Shown piece after piece: positions 1 to 7,515 of a stretch of 7,515 nucleotides of DNA. The stretch is taken from IMG/VR virus record IMGVR_UViG_2526164690_000027, positions 1 to 7,515 of that record; one strand, 5' to 3'. This stretch comes from a virus (taxonomy: Duplodnaviria > Heunggongvirae > Uroviricota > Caudoviricetes). The stretch's first letter is position 1, and every line of letters begins with the position of its first letter. Below the pieces are notes generated by a model. That model worked only from the letters and a program-made list of their open reading frames with translations, had not been told where the DNA came from and did not search any database. The translations under genes and the position numbers were made by a program.

Positions 1-1
1 A

Positions 2-1591
2 TACGATGCTCCGGATCCGCGCATTAAACAGCTGGCGCGCCGCAGTACAGTGACGCCGGGCGGGGCTGCCTGCAGATATAACGATATTATTCCGGCTGAC
101 CACTGTCTGCATGATGTGCAGGATATGAGTACGCTGAATCATCCGAAGGCAGACCTGAGCAAAGGGCAGTACGGCTGTGTCGGCCAGGGCTTACATATTG
201 CCAAAAAACTGCTTCCGTATATCCCGAATAACGCGGGGATCCTGCTGGTACCATGCTGTCGTGGTGGTTCTGCATTCACCCAGGGCGCTGAGGGGACATT
301 CAGTGCGGACACGGGGGCTAGCCATGATTCGGCACGCTGGGGTGTGGGTAAACCGTTATATCAGGACCTGATTGCGCGCACCAAAGCTGCATTACAGAAG
401 AACCCGAAAAATGTGTTGCTGGCGGTGTGCTGGATGCAGGGAGAGTTTGACATGAGCGCCGCCACCCACGCACAGCAACCTGCGCTGTTTACAGCCATGC
501 TGACACAGTTTCGTGCTGACCTCTCCGTGTTTAACGCGCAGTGCCATGGTGGCAGTGCTGCAGATGTGCCGTGGATTTGTGGTGACACGACGTATTACTG
601 GAAAAATACATACGCTACCCAGTACGACACCGTGTACGGCGGGTATAAAAACAGGGAGAGTGAGGGCGTTTATTTTGTGCCCTTCATGACAGACGGTAAC
701 GGTGTCAATACCGCCACTAACGCGCCGGCAGAAGATCCGGATATTCCGGCATCAGGATATTACGGTGCGGCATCGAGAACGAATGGAAACCAGGTATCAT
801 CAAACCGCCCGACACATTTCAGTTCATGGGCGCGCAGGAGCATTATTCCGGATCGTCTGGCAACCGCTATTCTGAACGCAGCCGGGCGCACCTCAGCCTT
901 CATCAGTGGTAAGGCACCGGAAATCAAACCCTCGCCCGGCGGCAACACGCCATCGGGTCCGTCTGCAGATACGTCCGTTCGCACAATCTCCCTGCTGCCG
1001 GCAGCCGGAGAGGCTGCTGCGCAGGGCTGGAGCATTAAGGATGGCGGAATTCAGTTGTCGGGTGGTGTATTTAAGATCGCCAAGCAGAGCAATAAAACCT
1101 GGTCCCTGACGCATCCGGTGGATGACGCAATTACCCTGCTGACACAGGGCGGCAGACTGACCTGTAAGTTCCGCCTGTCAGGCGCACTGACCAACAATCA
1201 GTTCGGGCTGGGGATTTATCTGTATACGGATGCTCCCGTTCCTGATGGTGTGGCGATGACGGGTACCGGTAATCCGTTCCTGATGTCGTACTTCACTCAG
1301 ACCACTGACGGCAGAGTGAATCTGATGCATCACAGGAAAGCCGGAAACACGAAGCTGGGGGAGTTCGGCGATTACGGTAACGACTGGCAGACGCTGGAGC
1401 TGGTGTTCACCGCCGGCAGTGCCACGGTTACTCCGAAACTGAATGGAGTGGCTGGCCCGGCATTCCAGGTTATAAAAGACAGTCTGACACTGGGACTGAA
1501 TGCGCTGACGCTGACGGATGTTACAAAAAATGCAGCGTATGGCGTTGAGATAGAAAGTCTGGTGCTGGAGATAAATGCACCGGCAGCATAA
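2..1591 (+). CDS. 5'-truncated phage moron esterase, SASA/SGNH-like (NanS-p-like putative sialate O-acetylesterase) with a C-terminal beta-rich domain
   Basis: Frame is open from position 2 to TAA at 1589-1591 with no in-window upstream stop; the GTG at 50 is only the first in-window start, so the gene continues upstream. Translation contains ...VPCCRGGSAF... and ...CWMQGEFD..., resembling the GG and W-x-QGE-x-D blocks of sialate O-acetylesterase (SASA) domains. A Gly/Thr/Asn-rich C-terminal domain follows. Position directly upstream of the holin matches where NanS-p-type esterases sit in EHEC prophages. Functional call is inference from memory. Confidence 0.55.
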   Translation, partial: YDAPDPRIKQLARRSTVTPGGAACRYNDIIPADHCLHDVQDMSTLNHPKADLSKGQYGCVGQGLHIAKKLLPYIPNNAGILLVPCCRGGSAFTQGAEGTFSADTGASHDSARWGVGKPLYQDLIARTKAALQKNPKNVLLAVCWMQGEFDMSAATHAQQPALFTAMLTQFRADLSVFNAQCHGGSAADVPWICGDTTYYWKNTYATQYDTVYGGYKNRESEGVYFVPFMTDGNGVNTATNAPAEDPDIPASGYYGAASRTNGNQVSSNRPTHFSSWARRSIIPDRLATAILNAAGRTSAFISGKAPEIKPSPGGNTPSGPSADTSVRTISLLPAAGEAAAQGWSIKDGGIQLSGGVFKIAKQSNKTWSLTHPVDDAITLLTQGGRLTCKFRLSGALTNNQFGLGIYLYTDAPVPDGVAMTGTGNPFLMSYFTQTTDGRVNLMHHRKAGNTKLGEFGDYGNDWQTLELVFTAGSATVTPKLNGVAGPAFQVIKDSLTLGLNALTLTDVTKNAAYGVEIESLVLEINAPAA

Positions 1592-1599
1592 TAAAAAAA

Positions 1600-1633
1600 G
1601 AGCCAGCGACTGACCTGAAAGAAGACGCTGGCT
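1600..1633. repeat. Stem-loop element copy 1 (8-bp stem AGCCAGCG / CGCTGGCT, 17-nt loop), A-tract on 5' side
   Basis: AGCCAGCG at 1601-1608 is the exact reverse complement of CGCTGGCT at 1626-1633. Preceded by AAAAAAAG, so on the minus strand the hairpin is followed by a T-run. Lies 9 bp after the esterase stop. Confidence 0.3.
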
Positions 1634-1747
1634 AAAAGGCCTTATATGTTTGTAGAGACTTATTTTTCACAGACAGCAATGATGCCTGTCAATATATTAT
1701 CAATATGCGGATTGTTTCAGTTACAGATGCTTTATTAAGGAAAAAAC

Positions 1748-1782
1748 AGCCAGCACTGACTTTCGGTGGAGAGGTGCTGGCT
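1748..1782. repeat. Stem-loop element copy 2 (9-bp stem AGCCAGCAC / GTGCTGGCT, 17-nt loop), paralogous to copy 1
   Basis: AGCCAGCAC at 1748-1756 pairs with GTGCTGGCT at 1774-1782. Same arm core (AGCCAGC...GCTGGCT) and ACTGAC at the start of the loop as copy 1. Preceded by GGAAAAAAC. Confidence 0.3.
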
Positions 1783-1956
1783 CAGAAGGATAGTTGGATT
1801 TCACATGATACTTATGCCTGGCGGTATATTTTCTGACAGACAGTGACGGGTGTTGTCAAGATATTGTGTCATTTATAACCTGAATCAGGGGAGGCCGGAA
1901 TGTTATCTGGCATTTTTAGCAGAGCCTGAATGCCATAATCACGGCTCCCGGCGTTG

Positions 1957-1995
1957 GCCGTCAGTGGGTGACACTGGCGGCTTTTTTGTTTTTCT
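1957..1995 (+). terminator. Rho-independent terminator immediately upstream of the holin (tR'-like position)
   Basis: GC-rich 10-bp stem: GCCGTCAGTG at 1957-1966 pairs with CACTGGCGGC at 1972-1981 (one G.U pair), 5-nt loop GGTGA, followed by TTTTTTGTTTTTCTTT at 1982-1997. Holin start codon is ~40 bp downstream. Confidence 0.6.
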
Positions 1996-2037
1996 TTACT
2001 TTCATTTTCTGTCGGCGGTGACGGAGACATACATCAG

Positions 2038-2244
2038 ATGGAAAAAATCACAACAGGTGTGTCATACACCACGTCAGCGGTGGGGACGGGATACTGGTTA
2101 CTGCAGCTGCTGGACAAAGTCTCTCCGTCCCAGTGGGTGGCAATAGGTGTGCTGGGAAGTCTGCTGTTTGGCCTGCTGACGTATCTGACTAACCTGTATT
2201 TCAAAATCAGAGAGGACCGTCGTAAGGTGGCGCGGGGAGAGTAG
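2038..2244 (+). CDS. S: Class II holin / pinholin (phage 21 S21-like)
   Basis: 68-aa ORF with two predicted TM segments: weakly hydrophobic TMD1 [15 protein letters not shown] and TMD2 [18 protein letters not shown]. Charged C-terminus [13 protein letters not shown]. Strong resemblance to the S21 pinholin from memory. Located after a terminator and paired with a SAR endolysin. Confidence 0.85.
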
Positions 2245-2499
2245 TCGATGAATAAACAATACGAACTGGTTGTAAAATGAATATTTCTAACTGAAAAAAC
2301 GTTCCATGAGGTAAGAAAAGGTCACAGGCAATCAATAACAGGACGTGATGAAAGACCCTTGCATTTGTGCGCTTTCTCTTTAGATAGCAGCAGATACTGA
2401 AAATCTGAGTTGTCGGGGAGTCAGGGATACAGCTGTGCAAGAGTTGGTCATTGTGATTCCATTGAAATCCTGTATGCCATGAAGGGCAGGATTTTATGG

Positions 2500-2814
2500 C
2501 TACCTGAGCTTTGGTGATAGTAAGTTGAAAATTCGCATTTTTTGCTGACATGCGTAACGAGAATCCCATAAACAGGGAGGACTTAATTCTTCATTAACCC
2601 ATGCGTTGATATTATGTTTCAGCCGTTGAAGCATCAGCGGTGTTAATGTTGTGGTAATAATATCCAGCGTTTTATGTGAGATCTTACCGTAAGGGTCTGC
2701 AAGAATGCTGCTTGTTGCTTCGTTATTATCTGCCATCAGAAGAAGTAACTCTGATTTAACGTTTTCTGTCATTAGTTGTAAAAATCTTCTGCGCAAACTT
2801 TCTTTACTGTTCAT
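2500..2814 (-). CDS. Hypothetical 104-aa protein encoded antisense to the lysis genes within an AT-rich insert (possibly YdfR/DUF1327-like by position; unverified)
   Basis: A 104-codon open frame on the minus strand inside a visibly AT-rich segment, where stop codons should be frequent, so chance ORFs of this length are unlikely. Hydrophilic, helix-like composition. Start ATG (plus 2812-2814) has only a weak SD-like GAAG upstream and an in-frame TAA immediately 5', so the start cannot extend further. In E. coli K-12 Qin, ydfR occupies the equivalent holin-endolysin slot (recalled, not checked). Confidence 0.4.
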   Translation of the reverse strand: MNSKESLRRRFLQLMTENVKSELLLLMADNNEATSSILADPYGKISHKTLDIITTTLTPLMLQRLKHNINAWVNEELSPPCLWDSRYACQQKMRIFNLLSPKLR

Positions 2815-2931
2815 TTATATGGCTTCATTTGTTGTAATCTGCTGCGTCTCAAGGGATATGTTTATGAGAGCGACCATGAGTGTTTGATTATATACCTAAC
2901 ATATCAAGGGATTAGAAATCGATAAATCCCC

Positions 2932-3465
2932 ATGAACGAAAAAATAAAATACGGCCTGTCGGCTGCCGTTCTGGCGCTGATTGGTGCAGGTGCTTCTGCG
3001 CCTGAAATCCTCGACCAGTTTCTGGATGAAAAGGAAGGTAACCACACCACGGCATACCGTGATGGTGCGGGGATCTGGACCATCTGCCGTGGTGCCATTC
3101 TGGTGGATGGTAAGCCTGTTATTCCTGGCATGAAGCTGTCAAAGGAAAAATGCGACCGGGTTAATGCCATCGAACGTGACAAGGCGCTGGCATGGGTGGA
3201 GAAAAACATCCGGGTGCCGCTGACCGAACCCCAGAAAGCGGGGATCGCGTCATTCTGTCCGTACAACATTGGCCCCGGTAAGTGCTTCCCGTCGACGTTT
3301 TATAAACGAATTAATGCAGGCGATCGAAAAGGTGCCTGTGAGGCGATTCGCTGGTGGATTAAGGACGGTGGCAGAGACTGCCGTATTCGTTCAAACAACT
3401 GCTACGGTCAGGTATCCCGTCGTGACCAGGAGAGCGCGCTGGCGTGCTGGGGTATCGACAGATAA
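2932..3465 (+). CDS. R: SAR endolysin, T4-lysozyme-like muramidase (GH24), phage 21 R21 / P1 Lyz type
   Basis: 177-aa ORF. N-terminal Gly/Ala-rich signal-anchor-release segment YGLSAAVLALIGAGASAP. Catalytic E-x8-D-x5-T triad in EGNHTTAYRDGAGIWT. Downstream blocks (...INAGDRKGACEAIRWW..., ...ESALACWG) match the R21 family from memory. No convincing SD upstream of the ATG. Confidence 0.9.
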   Translation: MNEKIKYGLSAAVLALIGAGASAPEILDQFLDEKEGNHTTAYRDGAGIWTICRGAILVDGKPVIPGMKLSKEKCDRVNAIERDKALAWVEKNIRVPLTEPQKAGIASFCPYNIGPGKCFPSTFYKRINAGDRKGACEAIRWWIKDGGRDCRIRSNNCYGQVSRRDQESALACWGIDR

Positions 3466-3559
3466 GCAGAATATTTTGCTGAAAAATAAGGCATGGCCAC
3501 GCGGGCGGATAACATGAAATCCTGCGAACTGGCAAAATGTAAGTGAATAAAAGTAAAAA

Positions 3560-3594
3560 CCCCGTTTGTTGGCAGCAAGCGGGGTTTTGTTTTT
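3560..3594 (+). terminator. Rho-independent terminator downstream of the endolysin
   Basis: CCCCGTTTG at 3560-3568 pairs with CAAGCGGGG at 3576-3584 (9 bp, one G.U pair), 7-nt loop, followed by TTTTGTTTTT at 3585-3594. An A-tract (3555-3559) on the 5' side makes it potentially bidirectional. Confidence 0.55.
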
Positions 3595-3659
3595 ATGGCA
3601 GTAAGCTATGGGAGGCTGCCTTGATTGATTTTAGCAAACTGATTAGGGAGTTGCGACTC

Positions 3660-3755
3660 ATGATTAGTCAATTACCAAACTGGAAATTTTTGCTGGTCTG
3701 GAGCATCCCTTTTTTATGGGTAGTATCCCAGTTAATTGTGGCAATTAAGGGGTAG
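3660..3755 (+). CDS. Small hydrophobic protein, 31 aa (MISQLPNWKFLLVWSIPFLWVVSQLIVAIKG), single predicted TM helix
   Basis: ATG at 3660 is preceded by SD AGGGAG (3645-3650) with a 9-nt spacer. Stop TAG at 3753-3755 lies 2 nt before the next ORF start. This is the 3' part of track ORF 3543..3755, whose 5' part overlaps the terminator hairpin. Confidence 0.35.
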   Translation: MISQLPNWKFLLVWSIPFLWVVSQLIVAIKG

Positions 3756-3757
3756 CT

Positions 3758-3889
3758 ATGTCAGACAAACTCATAACGCCGGCAAAGGTCCTGTGTGTGA
3801 TTGTCGGTATTTCATTTTCACTAATGCTGGTTGCTCTTTTTCTGTCCCTCGCCTGGGTGATGTTGTCTTCGTCGGGGCTGCTGGGGTGA
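3758..3889 (+). CDS. Small membrane protein, 43 aa (MSDKLITPAKVLCVIVGISFSLMLVALFLSLAWVMLSSSGLLG)
   Basis: ATG at 3758 is preceded by SD AAGGGG (3747-3752) with a 5-nt spacer. Below the ORF-track length cut-off. One long hydrophobic segment. The N-terminal TM segment resembles the Rz TM segment at both protein (KVLCVIV vs RVLCVVIIV) and nucleotide level. Confidence 0.4.
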   Translation: MSDKLITPAKVLCVIVGISFSLMLVALFLSLAWVMLSSSGLLG

Positions 3890-3891
3890 CA

Positions 3892-4008
3892 GTGACTGAT
3901 GACATCAGCAGAGCGCTGGCTTTTGCTATTAAGTGGGTGGCTGTTGGTATTGCTGTGTCTCCGATGCTGTATGGGCTGGCAAAACTGGTCATTGCGCTGA
4001 AATCGTGA
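3892..4008 (+). CDS. Small hydrophobic protein, ~38-40 aa (..TDDISRALAFAIKWVAVGIAVSPMLYGLAKLVIALKS); start ambiguous (GTG 3886 overlapping the upstream stop as GTGA, or GTG 3892)
   Basis: Frame matches the 3' part of track ORF 3736..4008. GGGG at 3882-3885 can serve as SD for GTG 3892. Paralogous to the next small ORF (shared motif RA[LM]AFAI[KR]xVA). Confidence 0.3.
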   Translation: MTDDISRALAFAIKWVAVGIAVSPMLYGLAKLVIALKS

Positions 4009-4019
4009 ACTTTAAAAAG

Positions 4020-4106
4020 ATGAGTGCTGAACTTATTCGGGCAATGGCATTTGCCATTCGTATTGTGGCCATTGCTGTTCTGGTCTGGGCAATCCGTTGG
4101 TGGTGA
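4020..4106 (+). CDS. Small hydrophobic protein, 28 aa ([28 protein letters not shown]), paralog of the preceding small ORF
   Basis: ATG at 4020; stop TGA at 4104-4106 lies 1 nt before the Rz ATG at 4108. No clear SD. About 9/20 identical plus conservative residues against ORF 3892-4008 over the core. Confidence 0.3.
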
Positions 4107-4107
4107 T

Positions 4108-4602
4108 ATGAACCGTGTTCTGTGTGTGGTGATTATTGTCCTGCTGGTAGCCTGTGGTGTGCTTAGTCTGGGGCTGAATCATTACCGCGATAACGCCATC
4201 ACCTACAAAGCGCAGCGCGATAAAAAAGCCAGAGAGCTGGAGCTGGCAAACGCAACTATTACTGATATGCAGGTGCGCCAGCGCGATGTTGCTGCGCTCG
4301 ATGCAAAATACTCGAGGGAATTAGCCGATGCGAGAGCTGAAAATGAAACTCTGCGCGCTGATGTTGCCGCTGGTCGTAAGCGCCTGCGGATCAACGCCAC
4401 CTGCCCCGGTACCGTGCGTGAAGCCACCGGCACCTCCGGCGTGGATAATGCAACCGGCCCCCGACTGGCAGACACCGCTGAACGGGATTATTTCATCCTC
4501 AGAGAACGGTTGATGACAATGCAGAAGCAGGTGGAAGGGGCACAGGACTATATCCGCACTCAGTGTACTAAGCAGGCTTTTTATTATCCGGAGGATGTAT
4601 GA
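4108..4602 (+). CDS. Rz: Rz i-spanin (inner-membrane spanin subunit)
   Basis: Translation from ATG 4108 ([39 protein letters not shown]...[23 protein letters not shown]...) aligns closely with lambda Rz from memory: N-terminal TMD, coiled-coil periplasmic domain. The in-frame upstream ATG at 4024 would add a non-homologous 28-aa extension that overlaps the small ORF, so it is rejected. Confidence 0.9.
4328..4513 (+). CDS. Rz1: Rz1 o-spanin (outer-membrane lipoprotein spanin subunit), embedded in +1 frame within Rz
   Basis: 61-aa [64 protein letters not shown]. Lipobox VSAC, proline-rich mature part. Close match to lambda Rz1 from memory. SD GAGGGA at 4314-4319. Confidence 0.85.
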
Positions 4603-4823
4603 AGAAATTACAGGTAACGGTAAAACCTTTTCAGGGAACAATTCCGTTCCGTGTTTTGCAACATGGCCGTGTTCTGCTTGAAGAGGTGTTCAGAGGTAAA
4701 TGCACTGAATGTTATTCACGAACATATGAAGTGAATGCCACGCATGAAGAATTCACCGTTGAGTGTGTGATGAATACTGATAAATGCCGAATGGTATCCG
4801 CTGAATTACAGCCAGTGTGTTGA
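4599..4823 (+). CDS. Hypothetical 74-aa Cys-rich protein (CxxC plus three further Cys), translationally coupled to Rz
   Basis: ATG at 4599 overlaps the Rz stop (ATGA). GGAGGA at 4590-4595 is directly upstream (short spacer). Five Cys including C-T-E-C. No recognisable homology from memory. Confidence 0.5.
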
Positions 4824-5191
4824 GCGACCTTATTATCCATGCGCGGTATTGTCGCCGTATTCCTGCATTAACAGAGACCGCAGCCCGACAGGGAGACTCC
4901 TCTGCGAGAGTGTGCGGGGATAATCAAAAACGATACACACCGGGGTTTACCGCGTAAACGGAGCGCGGCGTTCTCCCCTCATGGTCGCCCGTCCGGTGCG
5001 ATGGTGGAAGAAACTGGAATCTGTTCAATAAAAAAACTGCCGTGTTGGAGTCACAGCAGTAATGTACTGATTGGGTAGAAGATTATTATTGTTATGCTTT
5101 ATTTTTATTCTATATGGCTGATTATTTCAATTCGGAATTAATACAGCTAATGTCTGTGAGTTTTTATAAATTCAGCAATATAAAGAAATAG

Positions 5192-5419
5192 TTATATGAA
5201 CAGCCATCGCAGAGCATACTGTGTATCATTCTTTTTTATAGTCAACTGACGGGCATATTTTATGTCTGCTGCCAGCTCCCGGCGGCAAGATTCAATGACC
5301 CACGCAGAAAAATTTTCTGAACCTTTCTGGTCAAGAGCGATGTTAATTTGTTCAATCATCTGGTTTGGAAATCGGATGTTGCGGGTTGTTGTTCTGCGGG
5401 GCCGGTTTTTCGATGACAT
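5192..5419 (-). CDS. Small DNA-binding-like protein, YlcI-like (DUF3950 / ribbon-helix-helix-like), 75 aa, divergent from the HNH gene
   Basis: Minus-strand ORF with SD-like AGAGGA ~7 nt upstream of the ATG (plus 5417-5419). N-terminal basic stretch then RNIRFPNQMIEQINIALDQKG...FSAWVIESCRREL, recalled as the YlcI-type small protein found next to terminase genes in E. coli cryptic prophages. Family assignment is from memory. Confidence 0.55.
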   Translation of the reverse strand: MSSKNRPRRTTTRNIRFPNQMIEQINIALDQKGSENFSAWVIESCRRELAADIKYARQLTIKKNDTQYALRWLFI

Positions 5420-5460
5420 TTTCTTTCCTCTGGTGACAAGCTATATGGCGAGGATTTTAC

Positions 5461-5826
5461 ATGGCTGTGCTTCGTACGTTACCGGGCAGAATCAAAACTC
5501 TGAATACCCGGCGGGTGAATGTCCTGAAGGGTGAACAGCGTCGGGTCAGTGGCAGTGCACGTGTTTCCCTCAAGCGTCGTATCTGGCTGAGGGATGCCGG
5601 GCAGTGCTGTCTCTGTGGTCGTGTGGTTGACCTCTGTGACAGTGAACTCGATCACCGAATTGCACTTCAGTTCGGTGGTGGTAATGAGGAGACGAATCTC
5701 TGGACGCTCTGTACCGAATGCCATCGACAAAAGTCTGCTCGTGAAGTGGCGGGTGGTATGCCGGACCCGACGCTGCCGGAGGTGTCCGGAGGTCATGGCA
5801 GGGCAGACGATATCATCGGACTGTGA
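5461..5826 (+). CDS. HNH endonuclease, terminase-associated (HK97 gp74-like)
   Basis: 121-aa ORF with SD AGGA 6 nt upstream. Classic HNH architecture: C-C-L-C ... D-H ... N-L-W ... C-T-E-C-H. Located immediately upstream of the cos-like region and terS, as in HK97-like phages. Confidence 0.85.
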   Translation: MAVLRTLPGRIKTLNTRRVNVLKGEQRRVSGSARVSLKRRIWLRDAGQCCLCGRVVDLCDSELDHRIALQFGGGNEETNLWTLCTECHRQKSAREVAGGMPDPTLPEVSGGHGRADDIIGL

Positions 5827-5900
5827 CCCGCCCCGGGGGGGGGATCATCCGGCGAAAAAAACGATCCGCCCCGGACACCGCCCCCCGTCTCATGCAGAAG
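5827..5900. other. GC-rich segment with a G9 homopolymer; candidate cos cleavage (cosN-like) region
   Basis: CCCGCCCCGGGGGGGGG at 5828-5843, then GATCATCCGGCG, an A7 run, and CGATCCGCCCCGGACACCGCCCCCCG. Lies between the HNH and terS genes, where cos sits in HK97-like phages. The exact nick sites cannot be determined from sequence alone. Confidence 0.25.
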
Positions 5901-5917
5901 AAAAAATTCCTGTTCAG

Positions 5918-5939
5918 GCCAGTTAACATGTTAACTGGC
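5918..5939. repeat. 22-bp perfect palindrome GCCAGTTAACATGTTAACTGGC (followed by 8-bp palindrome GCCCGGGC at 5941-5948)
   Basis: Sequence 5918-5939 equals its own reverse complement (verified base by base). The flanking pair 5917/5940 breaks the symmetry. Confidence 0.9.
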
Positions 5940-6044
5940 TGCCCGGGCATTTTTCGGTTTTTATCTTTATTATTCAGTTTGTTGTGCGAAAAAAATGTTA
6001 ACTGGCTTTTTCAGCAAATGTTAACCAGGCAGCAGTTAACATTT
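5918..6044. promoter_or_regulatory. Array of GTTAAC-centred half-sites (consensus CAGTTAACAT); putative terminase small-subunit binding region (cosB-like) or other dimeric-protein operator
   Basis: Five GTTAAC cores at 5922, 5930, 5997, 6020 and 6035. ATGTTAACTGGC at 5995-6006 is identical to the right half of the palindrome. ATGTTAACCAGGC at 6018-6030 and GCAGTTAACAT at 6032-6042 form an inverted pair with a 9-bp spacer. An AT-rich spacer (5950-5994) separates the palindrome from the other sites. Confidence 0.4.
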
Positions 6045-6116
6045 GCGGCATGAGACGCCGGGAAAAATGGGCTGAACCATACCCGGCTGAGTGCGTTATG
6101 GACCCGGGAGGAGGCT

Positions 6117-6680
6117 GTGCTGACAACGCAAAAACGAAAATTTGCGCTGGCGCTCATGTCCGGGAAAAACAAAACAGCGTCAGCCATTGCCGCTGGTTAT
6201 TCGGCGAAGACCGCCAGGGTTAAAGGCTCGCAGCTGGCAAAAGATCCGGAGGTGCTTGCGTTTATAGCCCGTAAACAATGCGAGACGGTGGAGGTGGATG
6301 AGGTTCCTGTTTACCGGCAGAAAAAATCAGAGCAGGAGGATAAACCCCGTCGCCGTGAGGCGGCTGCAATACCACAGCCGGACGAAAACAATCCGGAGAT
6401 GCCACCGTCCGCGGTGATGTCTCCTGGTATTGAATATATGGAGGATGGTCTTCCCGATCCGGTGAAAGCGATGGGGCGTCTTCTGGTGGAGAACATTAAT
6501 ACCGACCCCAGGCTGGCGCTGGATGCGGCTTATAAGCTGGCGCAGTTCACGCACCATAAAAAAGGGGATGCCGGTAAAAAATCGGCAAAAGGTGACGCGG
6601 CGAAAAAAGCGGCTAACCGTTTTGCGGTGCCACCACCACCCCGCCTGGTGGTGAATAATGATAATGAGGGCAACGAATGA
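6117..6680 (+). CDS. terS: Terminase small subunit (Terminase_2-like, N-terminal HTH DNA-binding domain)
   Basis: GTG start at 6117 with SD GGAGG at 6107-6111. N-terminus ...KRKFALALMSGKNKTASAIAAGYSAKTARVKGSQLAKDPEV... matches the conserved small-terminase DNA-binding motif (AGYS..TA...GS.L) from memory. Stop overlaps the terL start (ATGA at 6677-6680). Confidence 0.85.
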   Translation: MLTTQKRKFALALMSGKNKTASAIAAGYSAKTARVKGSQLAKDPEVLAFIARKQCETVEVDEVPVYRQKKSEQEDKPRRREAAAIPQPDENNPEMPPSAVMSPGIEYMEDGLPDPVKAMGRLLVENINTDPRLALDAAYKLAQFTHHKKGDAGKKSAKGDAAKKAANRFAVPPPPRLVVNNDNEGNE

Positions 6681-7515
6681 TACCTGTGTGGAGCACGGCC
6701 TGCCCGGACTGGGCAGAGCGCCTGAAAAAGGGGCTGTCGATTATTCCGGCTCCGATTTATCCGGAGCAGGCTGCACATGCACTGGCGATTTTTAAACAAC
6801 TGCGGATTGTGGATGCACCGGGTAGCCCGACATTCGGGGAGTCCTGTGCACCGTGGGTGTTTGACCTGGTGGCGGCCCTGTTTGGCTCCTACGATGCGCA
6901 GACCGGTGTTCGCCATATCAAGGAAGTGTTTATCCTTATCCCCAAGAAAAACAGTAAGTCCACGCTGGCCGCGGGGATCATGATGACGGCGCTGTTACTG
7001 AACTGGCGGCAGGCGGCGGGCTACACCATTCTGGCCCCGACCGTGGAGGTGGCGGCTAACGCCTTCAACCCTGCCAGGGATATGGTACGACGGGACGATG
7101 ATCTGGATGACCTCTGTCAGGTGCAGACACATATCCGGACCATCACCCATCGGGTGACGGACACCACCCTGAAGGTGGTGGCAGCCGATCCGAATACGGT
7201 GTCCGGTATCAAGTCCGTGGGGACACTGATTGATGAACTGTGGCTGTTTGGCAAGCAGTACAAGGCGGAAGACATGCTACGTGAAGCCATCGGCGGGCTT
7301 GCCTCCCGTCCGGAAGGGTTTGTGGTGTATACGACCACCCAGTCGAATGAAACCGCCCGCCGGGGTGTTCAGACAGAAACTGCAGTATGCCCGGGATGTC
7401 CGTGACGGCAAAATTCATGATCCGCACTTTCTGCCGGTGATTTTTGAGCATCCTCCTGAAATGGTGGAAAGCGGGGCTCATCTGCTGATGGAAACCTCGC
7501 CATGGTTAACCCGAA
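6677..7515 (+). pseudogene. terL: Terminase large subunit, N-terminal ATPase domain; reading frame broken by an apparent +1 frameshift near 7349-7353; continues in the 0-frame to the window end (3'-partial)
   Basis: Frame-2 ORF 6677-7405 (242 aa) contains a deviant Walker A ...ILIPKKNSKST... but is far too short for a TerL. Its last 17 codons (TARRGVQTETAVCPGCP) look non-protein-like. The 0-frame is open from 7230 to the window end and reads protein-like from 7353 (PPAGVFRQKLQYARDVRDGKIHDPHFLPVIFEHPPEMVESGAHLLMETSPWLT). Junction is at the GAAA tract 7349-7352. Could be a real mutation or a sequencing error. Confidence 0.55.

Follow-up and report, generated by a model that had tools for sequence, protein, structure and literature searches.

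A modular array of predicted single-helix microprotein genes at the endolysin/spanin junction of temperate enterobacterial phages

The textbook lysis cassette consists of a holin, an endolysin and a spanin, and in the lambda-type cassettes of the Escherichia coli K-12 prophages DLP12 and Qin the endolysin gene R overlaps the spanin gene Rz. The stretch of DNA considered here (the window; 7,515 nucleotides, positions 1 to 7,515 of the Caudoviricetes record IMGVR_UViG_2526164690_000027 of IMG/VR) carries an array of four small open reading frames (ORFs) between these two genes, and no such array is found in the lambda-type cassettes. A preliminary description, made from the letters alone, had noted about 640 bp between a signal-anchor-release (SAR) endolysin and Rz/Rz1, holding four tightly packed small hydrophobic ORFs; the gap measures 642 bp (3466-4107) and the four ORFs are there, on the + strand. 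The questions that the locus raises are whether these ORFs are genes, whether they belong together, and what such small hydrophobic peptides would do at this position. All four ORFs proved to be real and conserved genes for small proteins, which fall into three families (o1, o2 and o3/o4). Together with related genes they make up an apparently undescribed organisation, a modular, optional and shuffled array of at least five single-helix microprotein families at the endolysin/spanin junction.

Coding evidence for four small genes between R and Rz

The array and its two borders are as follows.

2932-3465, + strand: SAR-type lysozyme R, 177 aa, upstream border of the array (PF00959 over residues 33-167; called 'lysozyme' by the annotation pipeline PGAP)
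3621-3755, + strand: ORF1, module o1, phrog_6632, probably 44 aa from TTG; alternative ATG at 3660, 31 aa
3758-3889, + strand: ORF2, module o2, phrog_4906, 43 aa, a single long hydrophobic helix; Shine-Dalgarno (SD) sequence AAGGGG at 3747-3752
3886-4008, + strand: ORF3, module o3, phrog_1115/3246/4493, 40 aa from GTG 3886, or 38 aa from GTG 3892
4020-4106, + strand: ORF4, module o4, 28 aa from ATG, C-terminal RWW; WP_032140280.1 in PGAP
4108-4602, + strand: Rz i-spanin, 164 aa, downstream border of the array (PF03245, E=7.9e-50)

To the coding question we brought every unique DNA allele of each module from related loci in IMG/VR, GenBank phages and bacterial assemblies, and compared the six frames by pooled pairwise Nei-Gojobori ratios of nonsynonymous to synonymous change (dN/dS), with 95% confidence intervals (CI) from a codon bootstrap. 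The called frame had the lowest ratio of the six in all four modules: 0.18 for the ORF1 core (CI 0.07-0.37; 6 alleles), 0.30 for ORF2 (0.19-0.44; 42 DNA alleles, none with a stop), 0.26 for ORF3 (0.16-0.45; 34 alleles) and 0.37 for ORF4 (0.24-0.60; 17 alleles, none with a stop). The upper limits lay between 0.37 and 0.60, and no bootstrap replicate reached 1. Conservation of the frames among relatives, one of the checks that the preliminary description had proposed, is thus borne out, with ratios of 0.18-0.37 and upper bounds of at most 0.60.

A second proposed check, ribosome occupancy, is addressed by published Ribo-seq data for a homologue of ORF2, XECs191 of E. coli O157:H7 Sakai (sequence ...ISDKLITLVKSLCVLVGISFLVMLVAIFFSTAWRVLTLSGLVG). 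This 'novel small gene' carries RNA-seq and Ribo-seq signal (Hücker et al. 2017, PMC5597208), with a transcriptome value of 30.0 and a translatome value of 12.6 reads per kilobase per million mapped reads in LB medium, a ribosome coverage value (RCV) of 0.43 and a coverage of 0.55 (PMC5597208 S2 table). An inner-membrane location was predicted for its product, and the gene was classed as 'real' and called at 49 aa from a longer upstream start; it stands there as one of 465 candidates, unlinked to a lysis cassette or a function (PMC5597208).

We weighed the contrary explanation, that the ORFs are chance frames in T-rich DNA, the shadow of a gene on the minus strand, or the decayed remnant of a larger gene. 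A 73-aa minus-strand ORF (3771-3992) spans ORF2 and ORF3, each module has one antisense frame that no allele interrupts, with a dN/dS of 0.35-0.60, and stops or truncations occur in several o1 alleles (an internal stop in one of the six core alleles, and two further prematurely ended alleles) as well as in one o3 allele. The antisense ratio, however, was always above that of the sense frame, in four of four modules, and other phages have o2 and o3 reversed or apart, which precludes conservation of the 73-aa ORF; we therefore rejected it as a gene. Among 2000 dinucleotide-preserving shuffles of 3621-4107, none gave four consecutive transmembrane-like ORFs and 11 gave three. No larger parent protein was found among 5.8 billion clusters or 1.84 billion representatives, and the longer database matches were the same ORFs called from further upstream, so that a decayed remnant, which the preliminary description had named as a refuting outcome, was also rejected. 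Considering these results and the Ribo-seq signal of the ORF2 homologue, we regard it as extremely improbable that the ORFs are not real genes. A mini-ORF in the same gap, MKSCELAKCK (3515-3547), was rejected as a gene because its ATG reads ACG in related sequences.

The prediction that each ORF encodes a single-pass membrane peptide also stood. Each of the four peptides (28-44 aa) has one hydrophobic helix, behind which a tail of just 2-8 residues follows, and the best 17-residue Kyte-Doolittle means were 2.08 (ORF1), 2.82 (ORF2), 1.88 (ORF3) and 2.51 (ORF4). AlphaFold2 gave helices for ORF1 and ORF2: in the 44-aa form of ORF1 an amphipathic helix (residues 4-17) followed by a hydrophobic helix (21-43; pLDDT 82), and in ORF2 a single helix (3-38; pLDDT 85). 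The products are predicted to sit in the inner membrane.

The genes proved less obscure than had been supposed. Three of the four were said to go usually unannotated, but PGAP calls ORF2, ORF3 and ORF4, and sometimes ORF1, and all four are held in RefSeq, UniProt and PHROGs. Their exact sequences are found in UniProt and RefSeq, each on at least about 1000 contigs, as hypothetical or uncharacterized proteins (RefSeq accessions for array proteins are WP_001043230, WP_001280935, WP_042004856 and WP_032140280). The family searches that had been proposed were productive in part: all four ORFs matched PHROG families (phrog_6632, phrog_4906 and phrog_1115/3246/4493), none of which has a function or a description, but no match was found in Pfam (E<=10), NCBIfam or PADLOC (E<=10).

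Of the sizes given in the preliminary description (31, 43, about 38 and 28 aa), those of ORF2 and ORF4 hold, ORF3 has 40 aa or, from GTG 3892, 38 aa, and ORF1 is probably longer. The two SD sequences that it had called good were located at 3645-3650 (AGGGAG), 9 nt upstream of the ORF1 ATG at 3660, and at 3747-3752 (AAGGGG), before ORF2. ORF1 most likely begins at TTG 3621, 39 nt 5' of that ATG, since the N-terminus is conserved across genera, phrog_6632 has 45 aa, and the sequence GGGAGG (3610-3615) lies 5 nt upstream of the TTG, which is the ideal spacing. Enterobacter, Citrobacter, Klebsiella, Providencia and Salmonella have homologues of 44-45 aa that retain IDFSKLIRELR, the N-terminal, best-conserved part of the o1 family, which is kept better than the hydrophobic helix; the Enterobacter homologue aligns to positions 1-45 of the 45 in phrog_6632, and those Enterobacter and Klebsiella loci that we read as DNA begin the gene with GTG. 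Distant o1 members terminate in RWW, as ORF4 does. PGAP occasionally calls ORF1 as 70 aa (3543-3755), running through the hairpin described below; this call, whose match to phrog_6632 has E=1.3e-12 on a profile of length 45, is probably too long. One GenBank phage record names ORF1 'TPR_REGION domain-containing protein'.

ORF2 starts 2 nt behind the ORF1 stop and matches phrog_4906 at E=4.5e-21; among its 103 database clusters nearly all full-length members have 43-44 aa, even at identities as low as about 65%. The start of ORF3 overlaps the ORF2 stop by 4 nt (GTGA). ORF3 matches phrog_1115 (E=3.7e-25) over positions 28-67 of 67, and the canonical o3 protein of 56-67 aa reads MRKYKRILLRLTMKNGLELKAPVTDD..., an N-terminal part that the window ORF3 lacks. 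On the profile alignment, ORF3 is a shortened member of this 56-67 aa family, fused behind ORF2 with a GTG start. PGAP gives it 51 aa from the non-canonical CTG 3853 (3853-4008), as against 40 aa from GTG 3886. ORF4, whose ATG lies 11 nt behind the ORF3 stop and whose own stop lies 1 nt before the Rz ATG, has no recognisable SD. It matches phrog_4493 (E=3.8e-6) and phrog_3246, both of which are also matched by ORF3; moreover, long o3 and long o4 forms have a common N-terminus, (M)RKYKR.LLRL.MKNG.E...P, and o3/o4 hybrid sequences exist, such as MKNGLKLEAPENPEITQAAAFAIRLISIAIFIWAIRWW. We read ORF4 from these alignments as a short ORF3 paralogue. Few sequences belong to the o3/o4 family: 19 representatives at E<=1e-3 among 1.84 billion, from temperate enterobacterial phages only. 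A contig profile search with the ORF3 alignment returned pattern matches of which none was confirmed by tblastn, probably owing to the very short query. A 554-nt ENA contig (P0062) encodes a 59-aa protein in which the N-terminal half of an S21-type pinholin is joined to the C-terminal half of ORF3 at a shared SQWVA(V/I)G; the fusion reflects either a genuine recombination in which R was lost or an error of assembly.

Composition of the array in other phages

We next asked whether the four genes form one unit. The preliminary description had treated them as a single four-ORF insertion behind a SAR endolysin, and neither part of that view could be maintained: the modules are independent and occur elsewhere in other orders and numbers, and they also follow M15, GH108 and GH19 endolysins. 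The dereplicated counts of the main architectures, from IMG/VR and GenBank loci, were as follows.

R(SAR)-o3-o2-Rz: 61
R-o1-o2-o3-o4-Rz (the window type): 47
GH108 endolysin-o3-o2-Lpp60: 26
R-ant-o2-Rz (933W, Stx2 II type): 16
R-o3-tm49-o4-Rz: 12

Further architectures were R-o1-o2-Rz, R-o3-o4-Rz, R-o3-Rz and M15 endopeptidase-(p93)-tm49-o4-Lpp60, and in Enterobacter prophages a GH19 endolysin is followed by a hairpin, o1 and overlapped Rz-like spanins (phrog_1026, phrog_1275). Four unrelated endolysin types (SAR lysozyme, M15, GH108 and GH19) thus precede the array, and in all loci examined but one it stands after the endolysin and before a spanin gene or the gene for a 60-aa lipoprotein (Lpp60). 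The last small gene stops 1-10 nt before the Rz or lipoprotein gene in nearly all arrays, the exceptions being a gap of about 790 nt between o4 and Rz in a few ant-o2-o4 and o1-o2-o4 arrays, and one of 22 nt in Enterobacter. Near-identical o4 alleles lie directly before Rz in some loci and before Lpp60 in others, so that the modules begin and end where the genes do.

A fifth small transmembrane family, tm49 (MIKAETTPQGADDAAKIIVVCRGIRHILTPVAWIICTALVAYTTIYLNR), was met in the same arrays (locus L091, 2185-2334, and about 25 other loci), usually overlapping the start of o4; it had no match in PHROG, Pfam or NCBIfam. No name of a K-12 small protein applies to any array gene, since the Qin and DLP12 cassettes are without these genes.

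Lpp60 belongs to phrog_7528, a family without an assigned function; it reads MNRKHWTHRMPRT..LLVGC.., with three cysteines in the mature part, and it fills the spanin slot after M15 and GH108 endolysins (L007, 1563-1745, equal to OQ243220.1 22465-22647; L336-L415). In the complete phage phiSTEC1575-Stx2k, where a gene for an o3/o4-family peptide precedes Lpp60, we found no Rz homologue (tblastn E>=1.5) and no other small late lipoprotein. One could envisage that Lpp60, in replacing Rz/Rz1, is, with or without the peptides, a new minimal outer-membrane disruption device, and that the peptides modulate both that step and Rz; o1, o2, o3/o4 and tm49 may then be an unrecognised class of lysis component acting at the last, outer-membrane step. 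We consider this very unlikely. The stricter proposal that the peptides are obligatory partners of the lipoprotein or of Rz was rejected, given that the endolysin is directly followed by Lpp60 in 40 of 77 lipoprotein loci (sampled regardless of small genes), so that about half of these loci do without the peptides, as do the K-12 cassettes.

The same phage has, at OQ243220.1 19848-20412 (L330), an S21-type pinholin gene that is 91% identical to the window S, with a 114-aa hypothetical gene at the place expected for R; downstream lies a second, complete lysis cassette with two holins and an M15 endolysin, so that the first cassette is possibly a relic.

Expression signals and candidate roles

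Two features at the 5' side of the array bear on how it would be expressed.

3556-3595, + strand: GC-rich hairpin (3556-3588; 15-pair stem) followed by a T-run (GTTTTT), resembling an intrinsic terminator
3596-3620, + strand: leader with the SD GGGAGG (3610-3615) for the ORF1 TTG, as read from the sequence

The hairpin has a minimum free energy of -25 kcal/mol (z = -5.4), which none of the shuffles equalled, and it delimits the inserted array on the 5' side. Similar hairpins with differing stems follow SAR, GH108, M15 and GH19 endolysins before many, but not all, arrays, another instance being L333 2935-2966, and there is no room for one where the endolysin abuts the spanin or lipoprotein gene. 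In the o3-first arrays of E. coli and in Enterobacter, the hairpin is followed by a comparable leader with a strong SD (ctgtttct..cctgagt.aggca.gggaga), and the first small gene comes after it. Within an operon antiterminated by Q, the hairpin might serve as an insulator, form the 3' end of an mRNA or be a site of processing. In a crude consensus scan, the + strand of the R-to-Rz gap (3466-4107) showed no sigma-70-like promoter, nor did such scans find one near the Enterobacter and Klebsiella homologues; and no strong terminator-like hairpin lies between the array and Rz, the sole strong one being that at 3556-3588.

These signals suggest a model in which the array, with its hairpin and short leader, was inserted at the endolysin/spanin junction of the late lysis operon. 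The genes would be transcribed solely within the late transcript, by the Q-modified, terminator-resistant polymerase, since they have no promoter of their own, the terminator-like hairpin lies upstream and no terminator precedes Rz. Translation could then be relayed from the well-equipped ORF1 start through to Rz: the preliminary description had seen junctions of 2 nt, a GTGA overlap and 1 nt before Rz, all of which read as it had given them, and these gaps, with the 11 nt between ORF3 and ORF4, are compatible with translational coupling. Because the last stop lies 1 nt before Rz, translation of Rz would stay coupled to an upstream ORF, as in the cassettes in which R overlaps Rz. The products would be inserted in the inner membrane, where they might tune holin triggering, the permeabilisation of the envelope, or the spanin step. 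We tentatively favour the reading that the peptides are late-expressed, non-essential inner-membrane accessory modulators of the membrane phase of lysis, because the array keeps its place in lysis cassettes of very different composition, and we hold this to be possible rather than probable. We think it unlikely that they belong to the core lysis machinery. An antiholin- or releasin-like function tied to pinholins or SAR endolysins is likewise unlikely, since the modules are found alongside four types of endolysin and several families of holin.

If coupling is what the gaps indicate, translation itself could be what matters: the ORFs would ferry ribosomes over the hairpin and leader into Rz by termination and reinitiation, and the peptides would be near-neutral by-products. 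The ending of the last small ORF 1-10 nt before the spanin or lipoprotein start in nearly all architectures agrees with this, as do the internal junctions (2 nt, a 4-nt overlap and 11 nt), the missing SD of ORF4, and the direct coupling of R to Rz in canonical cassettes. The purifying selection on the peptides does not, nor does the retention of the motifs IDFSKLIRELR, GISFSLMLV, AFAI[KR] and the C-terminal RWW across genera and flanking genes; besides, a spacer ORF needs neither three or more conserved families nor arrays of up to four genes. We judge this relay explanation very unlikely.

The hairpin raises a different possibility. Peptides of the Hok, Ldr, TisB and Ibs classes resemble those of the array in size and hydrophobicity, and the array products, or that of ORF1 in particular, might be type I-like membrane toxins that depolarise the inner membrane, are silenced by antisense RNA or poor starts, and serve as an addiction module or a back-up trigger for the holin. 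The peptides have 28-44 aa and best 17-residue hydropathies of 1.9-2.8, and ORF1 begins with TTG or GTG in E. coli, Enterobacter and Klebsiella. Since an A-run precedes its stem, the hairpin at 3556-3588, flanked by A- and T-runs, could also work on the minus strand and end an RNA there, and a promoter-like site is present on that strand (3764..3735). This site is weak, however, matching 9 of 12 positions, and such sites were fewer than expected from shuffles (2 found, 5.4 expected); it has no counterpart at the Enterobacter and Klebsiella loci, Rfam gave no family at E<=1 anywhere in the window, and the genes lie within an operon rather than in stand-alone loci. A type I toxin-antitoxin system with an antisense RNA ending at a bidirectional hairpin is therefore not supported, there being one weak site here and none at the homologues, and we consider the toxin explanation in general quite improbable.

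Several observations weigh against the lysis-modulator reading. The array is dispensable in many related cassettes and compositionally unstable, and o1 and o3 have alleles with stops, all of which would suit accessory cargo equally well. The junction also accepts the unrelated cargo genes ant and p93, so that position alone may reflect a recombination hot spot. One module was seen away from a lysis cassette among the loci examined: a homologue of o1 (phrog_6632) in a myovirus-type prophage of Klebsiella grimontii (L335 3001-3138, VNST01000037.1), which lies between baseplate genes (those of a PF18352 protein and of the sheath initiator) and has a hairpin on its 5' side and a GTG start. The dN/dS values below 1 may in part represent selection for hydrophobicity alone in the hydrophobic helix, and the Ribo-seq signal of XECs191 is weak, comes from uninduced cultures and concerns a homologue rather than the window locus. 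No homology to holin, antiholin, releasin, LysA, spanin, toxin or defence families was detected in Pfam, NCBIfam, PADLOC or Rfam, and in the literature we found no paper that gives these genes a function or discusses them in the context of lysis; the passages searched in a comparative paper on phages carrying Shiga toxin (Stx) genes (PMC8136144) do not mention array genes.

The same observations lend themselves to the explanation that the genes are moron-like cargo that benefits the lysogen, through superinfection exclusion, a block to DNA entry or tolerance of envelope stress, and that is parked at a permissive junction. The modules are optional, shuffled and variable in copy number, they share the junction with ant and p93, an o1 homologue lies in a tail/baseplate module, RNA and ribosome signals in uninduced Sakai are low but not zero, and the family is narrow and confined to temperate enterobacterial phages. 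Against this, no + strand sigma-70-like promoter was found from R to Rz or near the Enterobacter and Klebsiella homologues, the terminator-like hairpin lies upstream rather than downstream, and the array runs unbroken into Rz with a gap of 1 nt, so that its expression should track the late transcript. PADLOC gave no match, and the signal in uninduced cells is equally explained by spontaneous induction. We regard moron-like cargo as rather unlikely.

Prophage setting and comparison with known systems

The window is late-region DNA of a lambdoid prophage carried by enterohaemorrhagic E. coli (EHEC). Over 3466-4110 it matches chromosomes of O103, O111 and related strains at 100% identity; the full array (at least 80% of 3466-4110) was found in 587 of 5426 complete E. 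coli genomes, and at least a part of it in 2070 of the 5426. The gene order is a SASA-family esterase, an S21-type pinholin, a hypothetical gene on the minus strand, R, the small-ORF region and Rz/Rz1, behind which follow a 74-aa ORF, a YlcI/YnfO-family gene, an HNH endonuclease and the terminase. R has a hydrophobic N-terminal stretch, YGLSAAVLALIGAGASA. The flanking features in addition to those given above are as follows.

2038-2244, + strand: S21-type class II (pin)holin, 68 aa, first gene of the lysis cassette (PF04971, E=1.3e-32; 'class II holin family protein' in PGAP)
2500-2814, minus strand: ORF between the pinholin and endolysin genes, opposed to the late operon; phrog_1853, a family without a function; called by PGAP at 90 aa (WP_000138558.1)
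4328-4513, + strand: Rz1 o-spanin, embedded in Rz (PF06085, E=1.7e-21)
4599-4823, + strand: cysteine-rich ORF, 74 aa; phrog_2571, without an assigned function; WP_000736096.1

The start codon of the 74-aa ORF overlaps the Rz stop (ATGA), and the coupled chain apparently continues past the spanins.

The feature is real and yet more ordinary than it first looked, because its sequences belong to known families of hypothetical proteins and its location is a hot spot of mosaicism. The databases carry no record of these phrog families forming shuffled arrays at the endolysin/spanin junction. The timing and completeness of lysis set the burst size of a phage and, in the Stx-type prophages of EHEC, also when and how toxin and virions exit. 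If the peptides do modulate lysis, they would add a level of control that is new and readily tested, and would supply minimal membrane-active peptides; otherwise, the junction is a documented hot spot at which lambdoid phages gather and shuffle microprotein genes. In addition, the array is a good test set for the annotation of small ORFs and for errors in start assignment, with ORF1 at 31, 44 or 70 aa and ORF3 at 40 or 51 aa.

Comparison with known systems narrows what the peptides might resemble. They match no model of the PADLOC defence systems. Unlike a moron, the array has neither a + strand promoter of its own in 3466-4107 nor a downstream terminator, as judged from crude scans. Its peptides have no periplasmic domain long enough for a two-component i-spanin, and the true Rz/Rz1 lie downstream. 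The type I toxins (Hok, Ldr, TisB, Ibs and Zor) are of similar size and likewise have one hydrophobic helix, and ORF1 has a weak start codon; the array genes, however, are embedded in an operon, show no homology to these toxins, and had no antitoxin RNA detectable with Rfam or crude promoter scans.

Among lysis proteins, gp25 of phage Mu, the 'releasin', is said to be a small membrane-tethered accessory that frees SAR endolysins from the membrane. It is a DUF2730 protein, whereas the array peptides have no DUF2730 match, are far shorter and have no comparable cytoplasmic domain; and while the releasin acts with a SAR endolysin, the array modules are also found with M15, GH108 and GH19 endolysins. 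The S21 68/71 proteins of phage 21 and other antiholins are small inner-membrane proteins of the lysis cassette, as the array peptides are predicted to be, and theirs is the setting of lysis timing. The S21 pinholin has two transmembrane domains (TMDs) and a dual start, in contrast to the one hydrophobic helix of the array peptides, which have no dual start of the Met-Lys-Met type; the modules also occur with four endolysin types and with other holin families. A stretch of 16 residues in ORF3 resembles TMD2 of the window pinholin (BLASTP E=0.001 in that single comparison), and it is there that the chimera P0062 joins the two. A derivation of ORF3 and ORF4 from this TMD was rejected, on an hhalign probability of 4.6% and a run of DNA identity of only 10 nt.

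A comparable unassigned gene lies between the endolysin and the i-spanin of Pseudomonas phage MD8. P2 LysA, a non-essential membrane protein with several TMDs that affects lysis timing, is encoded between the endolysin K and the spanins LysB/LysC. It is far larger than the array peptides, its several TMDs standing against several single-helix peptides of 28-44 aa in the window, and no sequence similarity to it was detected with NCBIfam or Pfam. The likeness to LysA is one of position only: in all related loci examined but one, the array peptides are encoded at the same place, after the endolysin and before the spanins.

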